64,000 nucleotides of DNA, taken from assembly GCA_963666275.2 (NCBI GenBank), contig CAXXOA010000003.1, forward strand, positions 96,001 through 160,000, read 5' to 3'. The notes beneath the pieces were generated by a model, which ran no database searches, had not been told where the DNA came from, and saw only the letters and a list, made by a program, of their open reading frames with translations. Of this stretch, positions 6,259 through 64,000 are shown in pieces (positions within the stretch are counted from its first letter, which is position 1; each line of letters starts with the position of its first letter). Position numbers and translations under genes: made by a program. The DNA is from Oceanispirochaeta sp. (GTDB taxonomy: Bacteria > Spirochaetota > Spirochaetia > DSM-2461).

Positions 6259-6525
6259 TTTCTGACCTCCTGTCATTTTAAATGCAAGAGTAATGCCAGC
6301 CATCTCCAGGGGAGACTCGGGGGAAAAGGGAGAGTGAATCTGACAGGATTGTAGGAAAAATCTCTGTTTTTACCATTTGGTTTCTGATTCACTGCAAAAA
6401 ATCAGCTGAAACTTTTCTCTGAGAGTCTTTCCTGTGATAGTATGAGAAAGATGCCCCGGTTCAGTTTTCAGACCGGTAAACGGGTTTGACAGCAGTTTAA
6501 GACTTTGTACTACAGGAGAGGAAAT

Positions 6526-8105: not shown

Positions 8106-8121
8106 TGCAATTGGTATGCCA
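8106..8121 (-). promoter_or_regulatory. Sigma-54 (-24/-12) promoter for dps-peroxiredoxin
   Basis: Minus strand reads TGGCAT-ACCAA-TTGCA (GG-N10-GC), 22 nt upstream of the dps ATG and divergent from a sigma-54 activator. Confidence 0.85.
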
Positions 8122-8272: not shown

Positions 8273-8325
8273 ACTGAAATATCGGTTAATGGAAAACGAA
8301 ATATCGGTGTTTGCGATATTTCGGT
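8273..8325. promoter_or_regulatory. Three candidate enhancer (UAS) sites for the adjacent activator
   Basis: ACTGAAATATCGGT (8273-8286), AACGAAATATCGGT (8295-8308), TGCGATATTTCGGT (8312-8325). Shared near-palindrome CGA-wATw-TCG. Confidence 0.7.
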
Positions 8326-8348
8326 ATCTATCCCGAGGAGGTGCCTTT

Positions 8349-9827
8349 ATGCCGTCCCATTTACTGCTGGAAAGTCCTGCGGAAGAATTCCTGCAGATCA
8401 TTCTCAATGCCCTGAAAGACCTAGTGGATTATGAACTGGCAGTGATTCTCAAGTTCCGGGATGCTACCACCCTGGATGTTCAGAAAGCTGACGGCCCTCT
8501 TCTGAATGAAAAAATCGCCCGATTCAGTATTGATCTGGAAAACCGGAAGGATCTGGCTGAACTGATAAACAGGAAACAGCCCTATGTCTTTCCCGAGGAT
8601 CAGGACCATGTGGATACCTATGAGGAAATTCTGGATCTGCCGGAAGGTCACTCCTGTATGATTGCTCCTCTCCATCTGGAGGACTCTCCTGTGGGGCTGC
8701 TCACTCTGGATCATCGGGTCTGCCGCAAATATACACCAGATGTTGTGCGGTTTATCGGCTCTATCTCCCGTCTGATCTCTATTATTCTCTCTCAGAATGA
8801 TACCTCTCGCTATCTGCTGGAACAGAGCCGGAAACTCACTGAAGAGAGGAATCTCCTTCTTCAGATGGATGATGAAAGGTTTCGGAGAGTTATAGGCCGT
8901 TCCGCTCCCTGGCAGGCTGTTCTGGATTCTGTAAAGATTGTTGCCGGATCGGATCTGTCTGTTCTGATACAGGGCGAGACCGGTACGGGAAAAGAGGAGA
9001 TTGCCCGGCTGGTTCATCGGCTCAGTTCCCGGAAAGACGGCCCTTTTATTGCCCTGAACTGCTCGGCTCTTTCTCCCTCTCTGGCGGAAAGTGAACTTTT
9101 CGGCCATGAAAAAGGGGCTTTTACAGGGGCCTACAGCCGGAAGAAAGGACGATTTGAACTGGCTCATGGGGGCACCCTCTTTCTGGATGAGATCGGAGAC
9201 CTTCCCGCTGAGCTGCAGCCCAAAATCCTCCGGGCTTTGCAGGAGGGGGTATATGAGCGTGTCGGAGGGGAGGAGTCGGTATTCAGCAATGTCCGGGTTA
9301 TAGCTGCCAGTCATGTGGACCTAGCCGGGGCCGTGGAGAACAGGAGTTTTCGGGAAGACCTCTTTTACAGGCTCAGTGAGTACCCCGTCTATCTTCCTTC
9401 ACTGCGGGAAAGAGGGGATGATGTCATCCTTCTGGCGGAATATTTTGTGAACAACCTGAGAAAAGAGGGAGACTATCCTTTTCTTCAGATAGACAGAGGT
9501 GCTCTGGATGCTCTGGCTTCTTATAAATGGCCCGGTAATGTGAGGGAGCTGTACAATTATATCCGGAGAGGCGCGGTCCTCTCCGGGGGAACCAAGATCA
9601 GGAGAGAACACCTTTTTAGCGGGAATCACCTGCCTGAAACATCCAGTCCTCCTCCTGCCTCCATGATGACTCTCGATGACGCGATCGCCTCCCATATCAG
9701 AGCCGCTCTGCAGGAGTGCGGAGGGAAAATCTATGGACCGGGGGGGGCGGCAGAAAGGCTGGATGTCAAACCGTCCACATTGCAGAGCAAAATGAAAAAA
9801 CTCGGAATACACGCGAAAGAACCGTAA
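8349..9827 (+). CDS. NorR-like GAF / sigma-54 AAA+ / Fis-HTH transcriptional activator
   Basis: GAF with 'DTYEE...HSCMIAPL...GLLTLD', 'GETGTGKE', '[15 protein letters not shown]', 'WPGNVREL', C-terminal HTH. GAGGAGG RBS before ATG 8349. Confidence 0.92.
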
Positions 9828-21206: not shown

Positions 21207-21395
21207 TTAAAAATTATTATCTGAGGGATAATCACAGAAGAGATCCTGTTCGCTTTACCTTCGTTGATTTGCTGAACCGGCTGTTCAAGTCCTGGTGTAC
21301 AATCCGAGGCCGCTTCCGGGTGGTCCCGGTAAATCATCAGGTATTCTCTTCTGGATTATTCCCTTTTTTCTTTGATACTGAGGAGATCAGGAATC

Positions 21396-22922
21396 ATGTC
21401 AGAAACGATCACACCCTGCCTGCAGTTAAAGGATATTACAAAAATATATCCCGGGGTTATTGCCCTGGACAGGGTTTCATTTGAAGTTATGCCCGGAGAG
21501 ATTCATGCTCTGGTGGGTGAAAACGGAGCAGGGAAGTCAACTCTAATCAAGACCTGCTCCGGCGCGGAAATCCCCCATCAGGGGGAAATTATCGTCAATG
21601 GGAAAGAGTTTTCCTCCATGACTCCGAAACTGTCCGAGGAGAACGGTATTGCAGTCATCTATCAGGAGTTCAACCTGGTTGGTGAATTAAGCGTAGCAGA
21701 GAATATCTTCCTGGGAAGAGCCATCCGGAAGGGGATGGTTATAAATATGCCTGCTATGGTTTCAGAAGCGGAAAAAATATTCAAACAGCTTGAGATTAGT
21801 ATAGATCCCACGGGTCTTGTAAAAGACCTGACCGTGGGGTATCAGCAGATTGTGGAAATTGCCAAGGCAATCTCTTTAAAGGCGAAAATCCTGATTATGG
21901 ACGAGCCGACAGCTCCTCTGACAAAAGGAGAAACAGAACACCTTTTTGAAATGGTGGGGAAGCTGAAAAAAAACGGTGTGACAATCATCTATATTTCACA
22001 TCGTATGGATGAAATCTTTCGTCTTTCCGACAGGATAACGGTCCTCCGGGACGGAAAGAAAATATCCACTGTCAATGCGAAAAATACGAACCTTGATGAA
22101 CTTGTCAAACTGATGGTCGGGAGGGATCTTACGGAAACATTTCCGGTAAGGAAATCCTGTATTTCCGAAGAAGTCCTTCTGGAAGTGCAGGGGTTGAGCG
22201 GAAATGGGGTGAAAGACATCAGTTTTAAGGCCAGAAAAGGGGAAATCCTTGGATTTGCCGGTCTGGTAGGGGCTGGAAGAACAGAAACAGCAGAACTGCT
22301 CTTTGGAGCAAAACCAATAGAAAAAGGGAAAATCCTGTTTAAAGGAAAGGAATTCGTTCCCCTTTCTCCCAGGAATGCCATTGATAACGGGATAGCCCTG
22401 CTTCCGGAGGACAGGAAAAAACTGGGAGCCCTCCTGGATTTTGACATCAAGGAGAATATAAGCCTTTCCATTCTGCCGCGGATATCGAAACTCCTTGTGA
22501 TCAACCGTAAGAACGAAGCAGAAAAAGCGGAATACTATCGAAAGAGTATCAGGATCAAAACTCCTGATTTGTATGAAAAAGTCAAAAACCTCAGCGGGGG
22601 GAATCAGCAGAAGGTTATCATTGCCAAATGGCTGGCATCCGAACCGGATCTGGTCATCTTTGATGAACCTACCCGCGGCATCGATGTGGGGGCCAAGTAC
22701 GAAATCTACAAACTGATGAACGCCCTTGTCGAACAGGGGCAGACCATACTGATGATCTCCTCGGAAATGGAAGAGGTTATCGGTATGTCCGACAGAATCA
22801 TTGTTCTTTCTGAGGGTGTAAAAACCGGAGAACTGGATAAGTCGGAATTCAGCCAGGAAAAGATACTGAGCCTGGCCTCAATTGTTGCAGACGCTAGTCG
22901 GGAAGGAGAGACAGATCAATGA
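21396..22922 (+). CDS. Sugar ABC transporter ATP-binding protein (tandem NBD, RbsA/MglA type)
   Basis: 'GENGAGKST', 'MDEPT', 'LSGGNQQKV', 'DEPTRGIDVGAK'. Confidence 0.95.
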   Translation: MSETITPCLQLKDITKIYPGVIALDRVSFEVMPGEIHALVGENGAGKSTLIKTCSGAEIPHQGEIIVNGKEFSSMTPKLSEENGIAVIYQEFNLVGELSVAENIFLGRAIRKGMVINMPAMVSEAEKIFKQLEISIDPTGLVKDLTVGYQQIVEIAKAISLKAKILIMDEPTAPLTKGETEHLFEMVGKLKKNGVTIIYISHRMDEIFRLSDRITVLRDGKKISTVNAKNTNLDELVKLMVGRDLTETFPVRKSCISEEVLLEVQGLSGNGVKDISFKARKGEILGFAGLVGAGRTETAELLFGAKPIEKGKILFKGKEFVPLSPRNAIDNGIALLPEDRKKLGALLDFDIKENISLSILPRISKLLVINRKNEAEKAEYYRKSIRIKTPDLYEKVKNLSGGNQQKVIIAKWLASEPDLVIFDEPTRGIDVGAKYEIYKLMNALVEQGQTILMISSEMEEVIGMSDRIIVLSEGVKTGELDKSEFSQEKILSLASIVADASREGETDQ

Positions 22923-26238: not shown

Positions 26239-26254
26239 TGGCACAGTCCTTGCC
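26239..26254 (+). promoter_or_regulatory. Sigma-54 promoter for the EAL-domain gene
   Basis: TGGCAC-AGTCC-TTGCC (GG-N10-GC). Confidence 0.75.
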
Positions 26255-51967: not shown

Positions 51968-52477
51968 ATGCCTGTTATTGAAAAACCTGTAGACTTCAGA
52001 GACATAGAAATCCTCAAAGAAGCAGCCGCGGAAGGCCGGAAAGCCAGAGAGAAGGGGAACCACCCTTTCGGAGCGGTTCTGACAGACAGAGAGGGAACCA
52101 TTATTCTCCGGGCGCAGAATACGGTGACTACCGAACACAACGACTGCGGTCATGCCGAAACGAATCTGATGATGGCCGCTTCAAAGGCCTACTCCCGGGA
52201 GTTCCTTTCAAGTTGCACCCTCTATACCTCAGTGGAACCCTGCGCCATGTGTGCCGGGGCGGCCTACTGGGCCAATGTGGGGCGGATTGTCTATGCCCTG
52301 TCGGAGCATCAGCTTCTGGAAATGACAGGTGACGATCCTGAGAATCTGACCTTCGATCTTCCCTGCCGGGACGTTATTGCCAGAGGCCAGAAAAACATTG
52401 CCGTCTCCGGTCCCTGCGACGATCCTGATCTGATTTCCCTGATTGCGGGAGACCACAGGGGATTCTGGAATTCCTGA
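51968..52477 (+). CDS. Zn-dependent nucleoside/nucleobase deaminase (cytidine/dCMP deaminase fold, guanine deaminase-like)
   Basis: 'PFGAVL', 'HAE', 'EPCAMC'. Confidence 0.9.
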   Translation: MPVIEKPVDFRDIEILKEAAAEGRKAREKGNHPFGAVLTDREGTIILRAQNTVTTEHNDCGHAETNLMMAASKAYSREFLSSCTLYTSVEPCAMCAGAAYWANVGRIVYALSEHQLLEMTGDDPENLTFDLPCRDVIARGQKNIAVSGPCDDPDLISLIAGDHRGFWNS

Positions 52478-52678
52478 ATTAATGGATAAATAATTTCTGA
52501 CTAAAAAACTACAAATTTGTTGGTTTGCAAAAAAAACAGGCTCTGAAACACTTATTTTCAGGGGTTTCAGAATTTCATGTCTTTATGTATATAGACTTTA
52601 TTGTTTGACTGATCAGATAATCAAAGAAAATTAACAACAAAAAATTGTTGGAAAAAAACTCTTGAAAGGACGTAAAGA

Positions 52679-53692
52679 ATGAAAAAAGCCCTATTTCTTA
52701 CCGTTATTTTTCTGATTGGTTCTCTGCAGGTTTTCGCAGCCGGCGGACAGGAATCAACAGGCAGTGAGCAGGTTAAAGTTGCTCTGATCCTTCCCAGTTC
52801 AGCCGATGACAAAGGCTGGAGCCAGGGAATGTATGATGCGGCAATGAATGTCGCCGGCGCCAGCGACGGCGTCATGGTTGTGGAATACAGTGAAAACATG
52901 AAACCTGTTGATGCCGGTTCTGCGGCCAGACAGTATGTTGCTCAGGGATTTACCTACCTTGTTTTTCATGGTTCCCAGTTTAATAACACTGTAGTGGAAA
53001 TGGCCGAAGAGTTTCCTGATGTTACATTTGTATTCGGAACTTCCTCCCAGCTCCTGGGTGACAATATTATCAGCTATCAGCCTGCAACCGAACAGCCCGG
53101 ATACCTTTCCGGAATTATCGCCGGTATGACAACAAAAACCGGTAAAATCGGTATTGTCGGTCCTGTAGATGGGGGAGATGCGGCTCAGTACAACAGAGGT
53201 TTTTGGCTCGGTATCAAATCTGTAAACGAAGATGCGGAAATCGGTGTGGCCCATACAGGCAGCTACGGTGACTATGTAAAAGCCGGTGAGCTGGCTCAGA
53301 CCTATATCGGCGACGGTTTTGACATTATGGCCGGTTCCGCTCAGCAGGGACTGGGAGCTCTTCAGGCAATTGCCCAGCATCCCGATGAAGATGTGTACTG
53401 GATGGGAACTTCCGAGATCCTTTTTGACAGCCCCGAAGGCTACAAACTGATGGCAGCCTGTTCCTATCATTACGATCCTATTTTTGCCACCATCCTGGAC
53501 GCTTTCAAAGCCGGTGAATCCAGCATTCCCGGTCAGGTTTTCTGGCTGACAATTCCCAATGGCGGTTTCTCTTTCAGCATGTCTGATGAAAATCCCCTGC
53601 TGACTGCAGAAGTCAGAGCTGCTGTTGAAGAAGCCTCTGCCAAGCTGATGGCTGATGATCTTGAAATTGACTGGCAGAGTGTTAAATACTAA
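52679..53692 (+). CDS. BMP-family nucleoside ABC transporter substrate-binding protein
   Basis: Signal peptide, 'DDKGWSQG', 'GYLSGIIAG..TKTGKIG', 'GSYGD'. Confidence 0.88.
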   Translation: MKKALFLTVIFLIGSLQVFAAGGQESTGSEQVKVALILPSSADDKGWSQGMYDAAMNVAGASDGVMVVEYSENMKPVDAGSAARQYVAQGFTYLVFHGSQFNNTVVEMAEEFPDVTFVFGTSSQLLGDNIISYQPATEQPGYLSGIIAGMTTKTGKIGIVGPVDGGDAAQYNRGFWLGIKSVNEDAEIGVAHTGSYGDYVKAGELAQTYIGDGFDIMAGSAQQGLGALQAIAQHPDEDVYWMGTSEILFDSPEGYKLMAACSYHYDPIFATILDAFKAGESSIPGQVFWLTIPNGGFSFSMSDENPLLTAEVRAAVEEASAKLMADDLEIDWQSVKY

Positions 53693-53859
53693 AAAAGTCT
53701 TTATGTAATAAAGTTGTAAGTTTACCTTTCTTCCCTCTCCTCCGCCCTTAACGGGGCAGGGAGGGTTTCCTGATTCATAAGGAAATTCCTGCCTTCTGCT
53801 GAAGGGGCGGAGACCGGGGAGGGAGTACAGGAAGGGAGTCTCTGGAGTAGAGAAATATT

Positions 53860-55377
53860 ATGGAAAAAATTCGTTCATTGAGGATCGAGGGAATTACAAA
53901 ACGCTTTCCCGGTGTCCTTGCTTGTGATGATATCAATCTGTCGGTGGGAGAAAATGAGGTCCTTGCCATTGTGGGAGAGAACGGCGCCGGCAAGACAACC
54001 CTTATGAATATACTGATGGGACTGTATCAGGCAGATCAGGGAACCATCTATATCAACGACCAACCTGTCAATTTCAAATCTCCCAGAGATGCTTTTGATG
54101 CGGGAATCGGCATGGTTCATCAGAAGTATATGCTTGTTCCCAATCTGACGGTACTTGAAAATATAGCCCTGGGAATGGAAGCCGCCCATGTGAAGGGCCG
54201 ACTCAAACTCGATGTGGTCCGCCGGAAAATTGAAGAGATCGCCAGCCTTTACAATCTGCACTGCGATCCCGATGCCTATGTCTGGCAGCTTTCTGTAGGG
54301 GAGCAGCAGCGGGTGGAGCTTATCAAAACTCTCTGCTATGGCGCCCGTTTCCTGATTCTGGATGAACCCAGTTCCGCCCTGACTCCCCAGGAGACGGATG
54401 AGCTGATTGCTCTTCTGGCGGAAATGGCAAAAAGCCTTTCGATCATATTCATCAGTCATAAACTGCACGAGGTTAAAGCCCTCTCTCATAAAGTTCTGAT
54501 TCTCAGGCACGGGCGGGTCACTTTTGCGGGTGATACCCAGGATTATACTCCCCACGAACTGGCCTCGTTTATGACAGGGGCCGAGGTGGAACTTCCCAAG
54601 AACACCTGCGGCGAGAGCAGCGAGGATGTGCTGCTGGATATTCAGGACCTGACGGTTCAGAGCGACCGGGGATACAAAGCCCTTGATGAGCTTTCCCTGT
54701 GCATCCACAAGGGCGAGATCGTCGGACTGGCCGGTGTTTCCGGAAACGGTCAGAAAGAGCTGGCCGAGGCTATCAACGGACTGAGAAAAGTCCAGTCCGG
54801 AGAGATCCTCTTTCTGGAAGAGAACATTGCCAACCTGTCTCCCGGAGAGGTGATTCACCGGGGTATGGGATACATTCCCGAAGATAGGAATAATGAAGGG
54901 ATCGTCCCCTCCTTCTCCATCAGGGAAAACCTGATCCTCAAGGATCATGATTCTCCCCGGTTCAGTCAGCGGAAGGTGCTGAAACAGAAAGATATCTCCC
55001 TTTCGGCAGAAAAACTGAGAGAGCAGTTTGATATCAGATCTCCTCACACGGAAGTAGCCGCCGGTTCTCTGTCGGGGGGGAATATACAGAAAGTCATTCT
55101 GGCCAGGGAAATTGACAGGAAACCCCGTTTTCTCGTGGCTGTCTATCCCACCAGAGGTCTGGACATGGGGGCTGCCGAGTTCATTCACCAGCAGCTGCTT
55201 GACCTGAAAGACCAGGGTGTGGGAATCCTGCTGATTTCCGAAGAACTGGAGGAGATTATCAACCTCTCCGACAGGGTGGCTGTTATTTACAAAGGAAAAA
55301 TCATGAAAGTTTTGAAAGGCCGGGAAGCGGAACAGAAGAAGCTCGGACTTCTGATGGCGGGGGTTTCGGGTGACTAA
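53860..55377 (+). CDS. Nucleoside ABC transporter ATP-binding protein
   Basis: 'GENGAGKTT', 'LSVGEQQRVE', 'GVSGNGQ', 'LSGGNIQK', 'PTRGLD'. Confidence 0.95.
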   Translation: MEKIRSLRIEGITKRFPGVLACDDINLSVGENEVLAIVGENGAGKTTLMNILMGLYQADQGTIYINDQPVNFKSPRDAFDAGIGMVHQKYMLVPNLTVLENIALGMEAAHVKGRLKLDVVRRKIEEIASLYNLHCDPDAYVWQLSVGEQQRVELIKTLCYGARFLILDEPSSALTPQETDELIALLAEMAKSLSIIFISHKLHEVKALSHKVLILRHGRVTFAGDTQDYTPHELASFMTGAEVELPKNTCGESSEDVLLDIQDLTVQSDRGYKALDELSLCIHKGEIVGLAGVSGNGQKELAEAINGLRKVQSGEILFLEENIANLSPGEVIHRGMGYIPEDRNNEGIVPSFSIRENLILKDHDSPRFSQRKVLKQKDISLSAEKLREQFDIRSPHTEVAAGSLSGGNIQKVILAREIDRKPRFLVAVYPTRGLDMGAAEFIHQQLLDLKDQGVGILLISEELEEIINLSDRVAVIYKGKIMKVLKGREAEQKKLGLLMAGVSGD

Positions 55378-56509
55378 AAAACAGTTTCAACTTACCTTTA
55401 AGATCGCTGTGTTTCTGCTGGCGGTTGTTGTCTGTGCTCTCATGGCCTCCATCATTCTCTGGACCATCGGAGCGGAAGTTCTCAAATCCTTTTCGGTTAT
55501 CTTTTTTGAGCCTCTGAAGAATTTTTATATCATATCGGAAGTCCTTATCCGTATGATTCCCCTCCTGCTGGTCGCCCTGGGTATTACAGTGGCTTTCCGA
55601 AGCGGTATTCTGAATATCGGGGGAGAGGGACAGATCATCATGGGGATCCTGGGGACCACCATCGTGGCGGTCTGTTTTCCCACTCTACCCCGGTTTATCA
55701 TGATTCCCGCGGCACTGCTGGCAGGGGCCCTGTTCGGCGGCCTTTATGCGGCCATCCCCGGAATCCTGAAAGCGAAACTGCAGGTCAGTGAGCTCCTCTC
55801 CACGGTGATGCTCAACTATATTGCCGCACAGATCTATGTTCTGTGTCTCAGAGGTCCGCTGATCGATCCCAATGAACTTGTGACAGGCTCGGGGACTCCC
55901 CAGAGTATCCGATTTCCCGAAGCGGCCTGGCTGACCAGGTATGTGAAGGGAACCAGAGTGCATTCAGGCCTTTTGATTGCCCTGGCTCTGGCTCTGATTG
56001 TGTATCTCCTTTTATGGAAAACAACCTTCGGCTATAAACTGAGGGCCGCAGGAGCCCAGCAGAAGGCGGCCCGCTACGGCGGTATCAATGTGGGACGTTC
56101 TCTTGTGACCGCCATGGTTCTCTCGGGCGCCCTGGCCGGTATTGCCGGCGGTTCGGAAGTGATGGGACTCCACAGACGGGCCATCGAAGATATCTCTTCG
56201 GGATACGGTTTTACAGGAATCGTAGTTGCCCTTTTCGGAGGTCTTCATCCGGCGGGGATCATCCCGGCCTCATTCTTTTTCGGTCTGATCCTTGTGGGGG
56301 GCGATATGACCCAGCGGATGGTCGGCGTGCCTGCCAATATGGTTCAGGTGCTCCAGGGGATCATTATCCTGACCATCATCTCCGTGAAAATGGTGATCAA
56401 CAACCCCTATCTCCTGGACAGGGTGACCAGGCGCTTCTCCCATCTGATTTCTGACATGGGGAACGAAAAGAGCGATACCCCCGCAACTGAAGAGGAGGTG
56501 AAAGCCTGA
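55370..56509 (+). CDS. Nucleoside ABC transporter permease 1
   Basis: 'NIGGEGQ', 'TVMLNY', 'GYGFTGIVVAL'. Confidence 0.92.
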   Translation: MTKKQFQLTFKIAVFLLAVVVCALMASIILWTIGAEVLKSFSVIFFEPLKNFYIISEVLIRMIPLLLVALGITVAFRSGILNIGGEGQIIMGILGTTIVAVCFPTLPRFIMIPAALLAGALFGGLYAAIPGILKAKLQVSELLSTVMLNYIAAQIYVLCLRGPLIDPNELVTGSGTPQSIRFPEAAWLTRYVKGTRVHSGLLIALALALIVYLLLWKTTFGYKLRAAGAQQKAARYGGINVGRSLVTAMVLSGALAGIAGGSEVMGLHRRAIEDISSGYGFTGIVVALFGGLHPAGIIPASFFFGLILVGGDMTQRMVGVPANMVQVLQGIIILTIISVKMVINNPYLLDRVTRRFSHLISDMGNEKSDTPATEEEVKA

Positions 56510-57453
56510 TGGATTTTTTAATGAGTGTCCTTGTTCTGGGAATTCCTTTTTCCATCTCACTGCTCCTGGCTTCTTTAGGGGAGATGTACAACCAGAGAGC
56601 CGGTGTGTTCAATCTGGGCTGTGAAGGTATCATGGCCATGGGAGCTTTTGCGGGCTTTCTCATTCCCTATATGGTCGGAGGGGGAGGAGAGTACTCCTGG
56701 ACCCTGAACCTTCTGGGAATCCTGGCAGCTCTTGTTGTGGGAGCTCTGATGGGACTGTTCTTCGGCCTGGTGGTGGTGACCTTCAAAGCGCCCCAGGGAA
56801 TCGCCGGTATCGGGCTTCAGATGTTCGGTGTGGGTGTATCGGGAACCCTGTTCCGCCATTTTATCGGCGGTATCGCCAGTGTCTCCGGAATCAGGGCCCT
56901 GCCGATTCCTCTGCTGTCAAAGATACCCTTTCTGGGCAATATCTTTTTCAACCATAACCTGATTGTGTACATCGCCATGGCCCTGGTCCCTCTGTCGGTA
57001 TTTATTCTGAATAAAACCTCCTGGGGGCTGAAGGTCCGTGCCAGCGGTACCACTCCCGAAGCGGCGGACAGCGTGGGGATCAATGTGAACCGCATCCGCT
57101 ATCAGGCCCTGATCGTGGGGGGAGCCCTGGCCGGACTGGCAGGCGCCTATCTCTCGCTGGGACAGGTGAAAATGTTTGCGGACTCGCTCATAGCGGGACG
57201 CGGTTTTATCGCCGTGGCTCTTGTCTACTTCGGCCGCTGGACCCCCTGGGGCGTTCTCTGGGGAGCCCTGCTCTTCAGCCTGACCCAGGTGTTTCAGCTG
57301 AAAGTCCAGACCATGGGAATCCCTATTCCCTATGAGTTTGCGGTTATGCTTCCCTATGTTCTTGTTATCATTGTTCTGGCCCTTTCGCGGAAGAGTCAGC
57401 ACCTGAGTCCCCTGGCCCTGGGAAAACCCTTCGACAGGGAAAACAGGGTATAG
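56509..57453 (+). CDS. Nucleoside ABC transporter permease 2
   Basis: 'RAGVFNLGCEG', 'AADSVGINV', 'GRGFIAVA', 'MLPYV'. Confidence 0.92.
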   Translation: MDFLMSVLVLGIPFSISLLLASLGEMYNQRAGVFNLGCEGIMAMGAFAGFLIPYMVGGGGEYSWTLNLLGILAALVVGALMGLFFGLVVVTFKAPQGIAGIGLQMFGVGVSGTLFRHFIGGIASVSGIRALPIPLLSKIPFLGNIFFNHNLIVYIAMALVPLSVFILNKTSWGLKVRASGTTPEAADSVGINVNRIRYQALIVGGALAGLAGAYLSLGQVKMFADSLIAGRGFIAVALVYFGRWTPWGVLWGALLFSLTQVFQLKVQTMGIPIPYEFAVMLPYVLVIIVLALSRKSQHLSPLALGKPFDRENRV

Positions 57454-57633: not shown

Positions 57634-58206
57634 ATGATTAAAATCATGAATATTCTACTTGCAGTGGTTTTTACGATTCTGGTTTTTCTCTCCTGCCAGA
57701 CACAGAAAAAAAATTTAGAACAGGAATTATCTGCTGCAATGAAGCCTTCTCCCTTGGCAATGGCGGATCCGGATTCCATGGATCTTCTGTTGAAGCTGGA
57801 ATTATTACTGGACAGCAGCGAAGCATCTCTGGTTTTAACTGATGAACAGATTTCCCGTATCCTTCCCGTTCTGGAATCCTGGAGGGAAGCACTGGATGCT
57901 AATCAGTCCACAGAAAACAGGACTTATGCAGGATTGATCAGTCTGGAATTGACTGAGGAGCAATTAGCATTCAACCCGGTCCGGGAACAGCAGCCCCCCC
58001 GGCACGATCCATCCGAGGATATGGAGGCTCTTTCAGGTGATCCCGGACCAGGGAGAGGCGGCCCCGGAGGTGCAGGACCCGGTGGGCCGGGGGCTCCGGG
58101 AATGGATAGGCCCGGGAAGGGTGAGGCCGGACCTTCTGACCCCGATCAGTTCAATTTCAGGATGCTAATTGATCGTGTCATTGAAAAAATGTCGGAACTC
58201 AAGTAG
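57634..58206 (+). CDS. Hypothetical lipoprotein with LTxxQ motifs and a Gly/Pro-rich segment
   Basis: Lipobox 'FLSC', 'LTDEQ', 'LTEEQ', 'GPGRGGPGGAGPGGPG'. Confidence 0.65.
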   Translation: MIKIMNILLAVVFTILVFLSCQTQKKNLEQELSAAMKPSPLAMADPDSMDLLLKLELLLDSSEASLVLTDEQISRILPVLESWREALDANQSTENRTYAGLISLELTEEQLAFNPVREQQPPRHDPSEDMEALSGDPGPGRGGPGGAGPGGPGAPGMDRPGKGEAGPSDPDQFNFRMLIDRVIEKMSELK

Positions 58207-60519: not shown

Positions 60520-62367
60520 TTAAATCCGGCTGTTTTCTAATGTGTTGATCGGGAGTAATATGGTAACCAGACATCCCCCATCAGGGTTGTTGGATAAAGT
60601 AATATTTCCCTTGTATTTGGAAATTATGGAGTGACAAATCGAGAGACCAAGACCGGATATTTCATTATTCTGCTTGGTTGAATAGAATGGTACGAACAAA
60701 TCTTTATCCTTGGGAATGCCAATGCCTGTATCTTTAAAATAGATGCAGAAATTCTTACGTTCACCTGCAAAAAAAATCGCTGTTTCTATAATGATCTTCC
60801 CTCCTTCAGGCATTGCTTCCAGACTGTTTTTAAATAGATTGAGCAAGACCTGTTTCATTTCATTTTTATTGATGGAAATTTCAATGTCAGAACATTTTTT
60901 TTCAAAAATAACTTTTACATTATTTATTTTTGCATTGTAGTTTATTAAATCAATTACTTCCTGAATATGATAATTAATATTAATCTCTTCCCAGGCGTGC
61001 CGCTCTGTTCCGAGTTCCTGCAAATCGCTGACAATGTGAGTAATATAATCCAGTTCTTTCTGAATTTTATCAGTAATGTTCTGCATTTCCTTAGAGCTGT
61101 ACTTAAATCGTAAATTGGTTAAATAGCTATAAATTATTTCCAACGGGTTATTTATTTCGTGTGCAACGCTGGCCGCAACCAGACCGAGCGAGGCAAGCTT
61201 ATCTGAGATGATATCCTGTCTCTGAAGATTGCTGTATTCAGTAATATCTTCCAGAAGTACAATACTGCCCAGGAGGAATCCTTCATCTTTCACAGGGAAA
61301 ATCCGGATATTGAAAATCCCGGTTCTTCCATTTATTTCCATCTCGAAGTGAAAAAACTGTTCTTCCTGAAAGGTATTGATACTACGGATAATCGTATCAA
61401 TCTGAGTCTCATTCGTTCCCTGAAAAAAATCTGCTATCTGCCTGCCGATATATTCCGTCTGATCAAGATCGAAATTTCCTACACAGAACTGATTTATCAT
61501 CCGGATCGTTTTGAGGGTATCAATAATCACTAGATTGACAGGAAGATTGACAAGTATGGCCTCGTTGTATTTTATGAGTTCGTAAAATGCAGTGAAGTGA
61601 TTCTGGGATTCATCAAGATTGGCAATCTGGGTATAGGCCATTTTTATCAATTGAATTTTATCCACCTGCCCGATGGTATCGGAGAAAATATTCTGCCCGT
61701 CTCTTATGATTGTAATTCTATCTGCCAGTTCATGAAGACCATCCACTTTATGGGTTATGATAAGAATGGTACAACCTCTCCTCTTTAAATCAAAAATGAT
61801 ATCCAGGATCTTTGGCAGGGCAATTGAAGAGATATTTTCCAGGCTTTCATCCAGAATCAGAATGGTCGGAGTTTCCCTGATATTGACAAGGATTTCCAGA
61901 ACAGTTCTGTCTGATCTGTTTAAAGAGCCTGTCATTTGCCGGGGATCCAGATTAAACCCATATCCATCTAGGTACTCCTGAGCTTTTTCTATAAGCAATG
62001 CTTTATGTTTCCAGGAAAAAAAAGGCAGTTTTTTGTCAGTATAAAAGAGATTTTCAGCTATTGTGAAATAGGGATTCAGAGCTGAACTCTGATAGACCAT
62101 ATGCACCTTCTGCATCCTAGCTACCTGAAGCGATATGTAGTCGTAATTCTTTTTTAAGAGCCGTATATTTCCTGATTGAGGGCTGATATAACCGCTGATC
62201 AATTGTGCCAGACTTGATTTCCCTGCTCCATGTTCACCAAGTATGGCATGTATTTCTCCGGCATTCAGTTCCAGGTTGATATCATTCAGGACTTTCAGAG
62301 ATCCGAAGGATAAATTGACACTTGTCAGTATCAGAGTCGGTTCGTTATAAACAGCTGCTTCATTCAT
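60520..62367 (-). CDS. Fusion protein: sugar-ABC-type ATPase domain + PAS + histidine kinase (HisKA-HATPase)
   Basis: Walker A 'GEHGAGKS', Q-loop 'MVYQ', Walker B 'ILILDE', H-loop 'ITHK'. PAS 'LPVNLVIID...EDIT'. H-box 'VAHEINNPL', N-box 'QVLLNLFKNS', 'DTGIGI', 'PFYSTK', 'GLGLSI'. No TM segment. Confidence 0.9.
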   Translation of the reverse strand: MNEAAVYNEPTLILTSVNLSFGSLKVLNDINLELNAGEIHAILGEHGAGKSSLAQLISGYISPQSGNIRLLKKNYDYISLQVARMQKVHMVYQSSALNPYFTIAENLFYTDKKLPFFSWKHKALLIEKAQEYLDGYGFNLDPRQMTGSLNRSDRTVLEILVNIRETPTILILDESLENISSIALPKILDIIFDLKRRGCTILIITHKVDGLHELADRITIIRDGQNIFSDTIGQVDKIQLIKMAYTQIANLDESQNHFTAFYELIKYNEAILVNLPVNLVIIDTLKTIRMINQFCVGNFDLDQTEYIGRQIADFFQGTNETQIDTIIRSINTFQEEQFFHFEMEINGRTGIFNIRIFPVKDEGFLLGSIVLLEDITEYSNLQRQDIISDKLASLGLVAASVAHEINNPLEIIYSYLTNLRFKYSSKEMQNITDKIQKELDYITHIVSDLQELGTERHAWEEININYHIQEVIDLINYNAKINNVKVIFEKKCSDIEISINKNEMKQVLLNLFKNSLEAMPEGGKIIIETAIFFAGERKNFCIYFKDTGIGIPKDKDLFVPFYSTKQNNEISGLGLSICHSIISKYKGNITLSNNPDGGCLVTILLPINTLENSRI

Positions 62368-63724: not shown

Positions 63725-63771
63725 TGTCCTAAATCAGGACAGTTTGGTGACACCTGTCCTGATTTAGGACA
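63725..63771. promoter_or_regulatory. Pair of palindromic enhancer (UAS) sites
   Basis: TGTCCTAAATCAGGACA (63725-63741) and its exact reverse complement TGTCCTGATTTAGGACA (63755-63771). TGT-N11-ACA form, 30-bp spacing. Confidence 0.85.
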
Positions 63772-63890: not shown

Positions 63891-63906
63891 TGGCACTTCC
63901 TTTGCA
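63891..63906 (+). promoter_or_regulatory. Sigma-54 (-24/-12) promoter
   Basis: TGGCAC-TTCCT-TTGCA, near-perfect consensus, 26 nt before the next ATG. Confidence 0.9.
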
Positions 63907-63932: not shown

Positions 63933-64000
63933 ATGAGTGTATTACTTGAAGCAAAGAATATAGGTAAATCCTTTCCTGGAGTCCGTGCTCTGAATGACGT
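63933..64000 (+). CDS. Start of a sugar ABC transporter ATP-binding protein (truncated by window end)
   Basis: GAGGA RBS then MSVLLEAKNIGKSFPGVRALND, a typical RbsA/MglA N-terminus. Confidence 0.8.
   Translation, partial: MSVLLEAKNIGKSFPGVRALND

Follow-up and report, generated by a model that had tools for sequence, protein, structure and literature searches.

A gene near the end of the stretch of Oceanispirochaeta sp. DNA analysed here (64,000 nt, hereafter the window) raises the question of what a histidine kinase may sense when its input domain resembles the ATPase domain (NBD) of a sugar ABC transporter, and which genes such a kinase may control. The features of the locus are compiled in Table 1.

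Table 1. Features of the kinase locus, with positions in the window
Feature	Position	Strand	Basis
NBD-PAS-HisKA-HATPase_c sensor kinase, 615 aa, soluble	60520..62367	-	ORF, Pfam, AlphaFold, Kyte-Doolittle
HATPase_c catalytic domain; N, G1, F and G2 boxes intact	60547..60864	-	Pfam, family alignment
HisKA/DHp domain; phospho-acceptor His403 (codon 61159-61161)	61009..61185	-	Pfam, family alignment
PAS domain, residues 270-377; conserved helix 257-274 before it	61237..61560	-	Pfam, AlphaFold, family alignment
ABC NBD input domain, approximately residues 9-248, related to NBD1 of tandem CUT2 ATPases	61624..62343	-	Pfam, alignment, tree
Glu105 in the AEN motif of the NBD helical subdomain; suggestive co-variation with Gly199-Arg200 of the neighbouring permease	62053..62055	-	
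NtrC-type sigma54 response regulator, REC-AAA-Fis HTH, 444 aa, GAYTGA loop	62364..63698	-	Pfam, NCBIfam
Putative enhancer site 1, palindrome TGTCCT-N5-AGGACA; function inferred	63725..63741	.	
Putative enhancer site 2, 17-nt palindrome, 30 nt from site 1; function inferred	63755..63771	.	
Sigma54 -24/-12 promoter match facing the ABC operon	63891..63906	+	motif scan
Start of the divergent operon, which continues past the window (L001:4934-11560)	63933..64000	+	

Architecture, family and ancestry of the kinase

The kinase gene is a single unbroken frame. The four Pfam domains of its product, ABC_tran (27-175, E 6e-21), PAS_4 (274-377), HisKA (395-453) and HATPase_c (502-607), all score above the curated cut-offs, and no transmembrane segment was detected, the highest Kyte-Doolittle mean over 19 residues (1.59) being located in the PAS N-cap. 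The Pfam and hydropathy analyses thus confirmed the first-pass annotation of this DNA, which had described one uninterrupted frame with these domains and without a transmembrane helix. An assembly chimera, which it had named as an objection together with a stop between the domains, and likewise a frameshift were rejected on the basis of homologues of equal length and with the same Pfam domains in independent assemblies, sharing 92, 88 and 80% identity over residues 1-390.

The AlphaFold model represents a soluble NBD-PAS-DHp-CA chain of four folds (mean pLDDT 79), with low confidence in the arrangement of the domains (pTM 0.45); residues 245-256, which join the NBD to the PAS helix, are below pLDDT 50. 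In a Foldseek search with this model one half matched PAS/LOV kinases and the other ABC NBDs such as LptB; none of the matches listed spans both.

A search with residues 1-390 yielded 444 proteins among 7258 candidates. ABC_tran was found in all of the best 120 of these proteins and HisKA also in 119, and a profile search of 50% cluster representatives gave at least 150 matches, which were mostly full length. Pooling and filtering left 338 full-length NBD kinases, which form 228 clusters at 70% identity and represent a real family. The source genome encodes three copies, each beside a different CUT2 operon. A query with the linker region matched 20 of the 38 genomes of the source order, 14 of the 401 of a phylum sample, 7/9 genomes in the phylum of genome G442 and 26/258 in the family of G440, with up to six matches per genome; searches in the families of G048 and G230 and in the order of G281 yielded no further genomes. 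Record titles and source names assign the NBD kinases, as far as they indicate, to Spirochaetota and KSB3, with a few other labels.

The ESM Atlas contains a cluster of the same architecture that appears unstudied. It also lists ABC_tran+GAF+HisKA+HATPase clusters (approximately 830-850 aa, mostly Actinomycetota, scores under 0.9, to be taken as leads only) and a 515-aa ABC_tran+HisKA cluster in Spirochaetota, which perhaps represent other NBD-input kinases. A variant of 851 aa (P0222) combines ABC_tran with two HisKA stretches. Fused forms longer than 1077 aa were absent among 169 candidates, an absence that counts for little. In searches of the accessible literature on the architecture or on transporter co-sensing we found no published description of this kinase, which a domain census elsewhere may list; the architecture is apparently undescribed.

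By sequence the protein belongs to the class I histidine kinases (HisKA and HATPase_c) and is predicted to autophosphorylate: H403, N510, N514, D546, G548, G550, G572 and G574 are present in 100% of the 228 kinases. The spacing between D374 of the PAS domain and His403 is 29 aa in 225 of the 228, and that between Y245 and Y267 is 22 aa in 183/225. For residues 211-612 the best NCBIfam model was AtoS (200.6 bits against a cut-off of 646).

The N-terminal part is most similar to the CUT2 sugar ATPases YtfR, AraG, LsrA and RbsA (best NCBIfam models for residues 9-250, E 1e-39 to 1e-31, far below the family cut-offs). As suggested by the first-pass annotation, whose quoted motif pairs are correct, it resembles the first NBD (NBD1) of the tandem sugar ATPase encoded at 21372-22922 of the window (residues 10-227, 28% identity, E 2e-29), whereas the alignment with the second NBD (NBD2) is weak (24%, E 7e-8). 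With its single ABC_tran stretch the kinase is not itself a tandem ATPase of the RbsA, AraG, MglA and YtfR type: it has no NBD2, has lost the D-loop and carries a fused PAS domain and kinase.

Walker A (44-51), Q93, D173-E174 and H206 are retained in the source kinase, whereas the signature and the D-loop are degenerate. Across the family K50 is kept in 222 of the 228 kinases and the full set of K50, Q93, D173, E174 and H206 in 153; H206 is retained in 76%, compared with 100% of NBD1 domains. An SGG signature occurs in none of the 228, and Pro175 at the junction of Walker B and D-loop in one. The AEN motif is largely kept (E or D at 105 in 195/228, N106 in 190/228). The domain therefore has the Walker A, Q-loop, Walker B and H-loop of an ABC NBD and lacks the LSGGQ signature and the D-loop for a hydrolytic homodimer. 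The first-pass annotation had reported this pattern for Walker A, the Walker B Glu, the H-loop, the signature and the D-loop. Loss of the signature, however, is not specific to the kinase: in the NBD1 of 66 neighbouring tandem ATPases Walker A, Walker B and the histidine are intact and the signature is already degenerate (consensus L-S-x-A-Q-x-Q), whereas NBD2 carries LSGGNQQ in nearly all of them and a degenerate Walker A. Specific to the kinase is the loss of the Walker B proline and the D-loop (DEPTSAL to DExLEKL). Since NBD1 already combines intact Walker A and B motifs with a degenerate signature, the kinase NBD presumably inherited the ability to bind ATP in cis without trans elements.

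All 67 kinase NBDs among the 226 domains of a FastTree phylogeny group together in a single clade (support 0.98), which is sister to the NBD1 of tandem CUT2 ATPases (0.74). The kinase NBDs are no closer to the ATPase of their own locus than to others (median rank 0.51). A recent fusion with the neighbouring ATPase was thus rejected, and the fusion is old and occurred once among the sequences sampled. It seems highly improbable that the NBD is a mere relic of this fusion without a role in signalling. It does diverge faster than NBD1 (mean pairwise identity 37% vs. 42%), but full-length copies persist in 228 sequences that share less than 70% identity, Walker A and B are retained, and its conservation is close to that of the kinase core (mean majority fraction 0.46 vs. 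0.50).

Linkage to CUT2 importers and sigma54 activators

The kinase gene lies downstream of the activator gene, which overlaps its start by 4 nt. Beyond the activator gene follow the two palindromes and the only exact sigma54 promoter match of the window, and rpoN is present in the source genome. A REC-AAA-HTH activator, a sigma54 gene, a -24/-12 promoter and upstream putative enhancer sites together predict an NtrC-type sigma54 system. The divergent operon is predicted to encode a tandem CUT2 ATPase, a permease, a binding protein, a dehydrogenase of the GolD/DthD family, an RpiB/DerI-like isomerase, DhaK and DhaL; a permease beyond position 64000 had been expected by the first-pass annotation. 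The dehydrogenase scores above the cut-off of the GolD/DthD-family model, and the match of the RpiB isomerase to DerI remains below it. The best solved relative of the binding protein is 4RSM, which we take to bind D-threitol, and DthD, an erythrulose kinase and DerI presumably constitute a threitol route, on which a literature search gave nothing usable. Going by NCBIfam names and this route, a small polyol, for instance D-threitol, is the probable substrate.

Downstream of the polyol operon (L001:12021-14209) a lysine 2,3-aminomutase gene was found beside that of a GNAT acetyltransferase, a pair which resembles the beta-lysine osmolyte pair. Further, near-consensus sigma54 sites of the window are located at 6283-6298, 8106-8121 (-) and 26239-26254 (+), the second a short distance upstream of a divergently oriented GAF-sigma54 activator gene (8289-9827). 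The window furthermore contains (51968-57453, +) a deaminase gene ahead of the genes for a BMP-type nucleoside ABC importer, which comprises a binding protein, a tandem ATPase and two permeases. This importer has no NBD kinase of its own, and its ATPase gene begins some 5 kb away from where the MCP gene neighbouring the kinase gene ends. A 190-aa lipoprotein-like ORF with a Gly/Pro-rich segment and without a Pfam match is located at 57634-58206 (+).

The predicted linkage to RbsABC-type (CUT2) operons was followed in loci with 7 kb of sequence on both sides of the kinase gene (well flanked). The discovery set comprised 142 kinase ORFs in 105 clusters at 80%, of which 57 were dropped for short flanks. 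Among the remaining 48 loci a CUT2 ATPase and permease were found in 46 (45 by profile, and the BMP-type locus L124 read by hand), and a sigma54 activator adjoins the kinase in 47. In a later set of 54 ORFs, which added 28 new clusters with 22 of them well flanked, ATPase and permease were detected in 20 loci, 16 by profile and four of the BMP type, and not in the other two; the activator adjoins in 22/22. Taken together, 66 of 70 well-flanked loci, including five of the BMP type, have a CUT2 ATPase and permease within 7 kb, and the activator abuts the kinase in 69, counts which include related loci and do not represent independent events. No CUT2 transporter was detected within 7 kb at three loci (L111, L259, L260), and L126 has a permease and a binding protein only.

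By comparison, 1 of 33 well-flanked ordinary kinases (74 in total) from other genomes lies near a CUT2 transporter, a loose control from different taxa. These kinases originate from a contig scan which was dominated by the generic H-box pattern and yielded six full-length loci among 80. In the source genome three of the 66 kinases are located near any of the 39 CUT2 ATPases; all three are of the NBD type, against 0 of the 63 others. The linkage foreseen by the first-pass annotation is thus borne out against both controls.

In 34 of 61 loci a strict sigma54 motif points towards the transporter, and in none away from it, with 0.18 expected from mononucleotide shuffles; the 61 are part of 67 paired loci, six having been left out for the lack of an adjacent activator or another layout. 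Across the 67 loci the activator loop reads GAYTGA in 34, GAFTGA in 17, GAFTDA in 6 and GSYTGA in 6, the Tyr variant being unusually common.

Several loci deviate from the common layout. At L126:8935-13541 (G408:C2) the NBD kinase is accompanied by a 219-aa regulator without an AAA domain and faces the permease and binding protein genes; the 20 kb fetched contain no ATPase gene, and no strict sigma54 motif occurs between the regulator and the permease side. The locus may be in decay or, alternatively, constitute a minimal sensing module. In three loci (L112:6003-6800, L118:5708-6553, L196:6203-7000) the kinase is paired with a single-domain CUT2 ATPase with intact signature. A single lineage (L124, L264, L266, L269, L274, L276), found next to BMP-type (nucleoside) transporters, carries Ala or Ile at position 161. 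Two kinase/activator pairs only a few kb apart occur in L010, L211 and L245 (G448:C8); in the first two of these loci each pair has a transporter close by.

The linkage might also reflect shared regulation, with the kinase sensing in the cytoplasm without contact to the transporter: the ligand of the PAS domain would be the sugar taken up or a catabolite, and the NBD would gate the kinase by ATP/ADP state or only aid dimerisation. PAS domains are established small-molecule sensors, which together with the retained Walker A lysine, the catabolic genes accompanying many loci and the locus L111, which has sugar catabolic genes as neighbours and lacks a transporter within 9 kb, agrees with such a role. 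We nevertheless consider it rather unlikely, since it leaves unexplained why all three NBD kinases of the source genome, and none of its other kinases, lie near CUT2 ATPases, why the membrane-facing AEN motif is retained and why residue 105 varies with the permease (see below). A reading of the nucleotide state would likewise not account for the pairing of one kinase with one transporter.

Possible contact between kinase and permease

We assign a probability of roughly 60% to the reading that the kinase NBD docks on the cognate permease and relays the state of the transporter to His403 and from there to the sigma54 promoter of the uptake operon. The kinase dimer would grip the cytoplasmic coupling loop of the permease with its NBD groove, as a transport ATPase does. 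Its NBDs would bind ATP; without signature and D-loop two of them should be unable to form a normal hydrolytic sandwich, so that they would gauge conformation instead of serving as a motor. Docking of the loaded binding protein, or cycling of the transporter, would alter the spacing of the coupling helices, and this change would travel along a helix that hardly varies in length and via the PAS dimer to His403. Once phosphorylated, the activator would bind the palindromes and open the promoter of the uptake and catabolism operon. The first-pass annotation had proposed that the NBD passes transport signals from a sugar permease, or the nucleotide state, directly to the kinase; the CUT2 linkage supports this in part, but the sigma54 activator, the promoter and the enhancer sites which would supply the output had been missed.

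Docking may take two forms. Either the kinase dimer would replace the whole ATPase on some permease dimers, forming a complex for signalling only, or one kinase NBD would take the place of NBD1 and pair with the signature-bearing NBD of the ATPase. We can only tentatively suggest that the kinase dimer stands in for the ATPase as a subunit devoted to signalling and occupies both coupling loops of the permease dimer. In that case the same binding protein and permease would form a transporter with the tandem ATPase and a receptor with the kinase, and the ratio of the two complexes would provide a built-in feedback during induction of the operon.

A suggestive hint of permease contact at the level of single residues is the co-variation of Glu105 with Arg200 of the permease. 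In a column scan of the kinase NBD against the cognate NBD1, positions 105, 73, 104, 89 and 161 came out on top. Among 16 loci without a G[RK] permease, 13 lack an acidic residue at position 105, compared with 1 of the 61 that have such a permease (77 loci, any permease within 7 kb; table 13/1/3/60); this rule was picked after seeing the data, the co-variation itself having been found post hoc, and the nearest permease only gives 14/0/9/54. In the co-variation position 105 ranks first of 182 kinase columns and position 200 first of 197 permease columns, and the column equivalent to 105 ranks first of 91 in true NBD1 and 43rd of 75 in NBD2. A prediction fixed beforehand for 17 new loci had one informative case (table 1/1/0/15, Fisher p 0.12); the pooled table of 94 loci is 14/2/3/75. 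The tree-aware test identified five supported independent pairs, about 3.7 of them changing in the same way and none in the opposite way (sign test, p 0.125). The six BMP-type loci form a counter-lineage, keeping E105 with permeases without GR. The docking proposed by the first-pass annotation thus gains a residue-level pattern, which is, however, not significant once relatedness is allowed for.

The permease model has the type II importer fold (HmuU, Z 16.8, rmsd 4.4, 263 residues aligned), and no solved CUT2 permease was found by sequence or by Foldseek at E 0.001. R200 is located in the first helix of a short pair (197-207, 209-214) between long helices, which we take to be the NBD-coupling loop, as in BtuC. 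Groove residues F90, R91, L93 and R150 of LptB are described as contacting coupling helices (PMC5082905). The LptB residues presumably map to about 98-101 and to 161 of the kinase. Position 161 is Val in the source kinase and Arg or Lys in 183 of 228 relatives, a deviation that speaks against docking.

Docking is also weakened by the three loci without a CUT2 transporter within 7 kb, by kinase NBDs being no closer to their own ATPase than to others and by the low model confidence at residues 245-256. A test on interface positions fixed in advance was weak, with z of 0.8-1.8 against cognate NBD1, and showed no excess of cognate pairs with NBD2. In an unguided mutual information analysis of NBD and permease columns (effective n approximately 25) the pair 105-200 was not among the top pairs, and the positive control failed as well, no clear interface emerging for true NBD1.

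The result for NBD2 bears on a further possibility, namely that the kinase NBD binds the transport ATPase, its Walker A face pairing with the signature-bearing NBD2 or a single-domain ATPase. The kinase would then read the ATPase cycle or be sequestered by the resting ATPase, for which MalT and MalK are the model. Kept cis residues and lost trans elements would suit a heterodimer, and partners with an intact signature are at hand in the LSGGNQQ motif of nearly all neighbouring NBD2 and in the three single-domain ATPases. NBD2 is, however, covalently joined to its own NBD1, the interface set offers no support, L126 combines kinase, permease and binding protein without an ATPase gene (although this locus may be decaying), and H206 is less strictly kept than in NBD1, which indicates that hydrolysis is not universally needed. 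Binding to the ATPase therefore appears unlikely to us.

Relation to known systems and implications

Kinases informed by ABC transporters are known from the Bce modules of Firmicutes (BceAB-BceS-BceR), described as flux sensing, in which a kinase without a ligand sensor of its own depends on the transporter and induces the transporter genes (PMC10314905, PMC6978683). BceS is described there as a separate membrane protein contacting BceB via transmembrane helices (PMC10314905). The NBD kinases share with this account the transporter as presumed informant, a dependence suggested by linkage and co-variation, and transporter genes as output. They differ in being soluble, in carrying their own NBD, in neighbouring binding-protein-dependent CUT2 importers and their permeases, and in the sigma54 activator; the lack of a transmembrane segment sets them apart from Bce-type membrane kinases.

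PstSCAB-PhoU-PhoR/PhoB is described as a system in which an ABC importer controls a kinase without a periplasmic sensor (PMC6978683). PhoR is likewise a PAS-type kinase, and its model TIGR02966 matches residues 270-599 below the cut-off. In Pst the coupling runs via the adaptor PhoU to the ATPase PstB, whereas the NBD kinase carries the NBD itself. No recurrent adaptor gene was found in the NBD-kinase loci examined, and no PhoU or Pst gene occurs among the annotated neighbours of the source locus, which is thus not a PstSCAB-PhoU-PhoR system.

Likewise fusions, as far as they are described, are the SLC5/STAC kinases (CbrA, CrbS, RpuS), in which a transporter module is fused to PAS and histidine kinase domains and which control nutrient uptake genes (PMC9100948). 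There the fused part is a membrane symporter, whereas in the NBD kinase it is a soluble ABC ATPase domain and the membrane part is encoded by a separate gene; Pfam detected no SLC5 or STAC domain in the kinase. AtoS/AtoC, ZraS/ZraR and NtrB/NtrC likewise combine a PAS-HisKA-HATPase kinase with a sigma54 activator, but the input of the NBD kinase is an ABC NBD and not a transmembrane, periplasmic or PAS-only one.

For Bce and Pst, where contact is made via membrane helices or an adaptor, there is continuing debate on how an ABC transporter conveys its conformational state to a kinase. A kinase with its own NBD offers a soluble, genetically separable handle, open to separate mutation of groove, Walker A and linker. 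If the kinase docks as an alternative ATPase, one permease would serve as transporter and receptor, and if the related ABC_tran+HisKA clusters in Actinomycetota behave alike, a general class of ABC-derived receptors would emerge. NBD kinases could furthermore yield modular sugar biosensors. In spirochaetes and KSB3 bacteria the family marks the regulators of many uncharacterised sugar, polyol and nucleoside importers.
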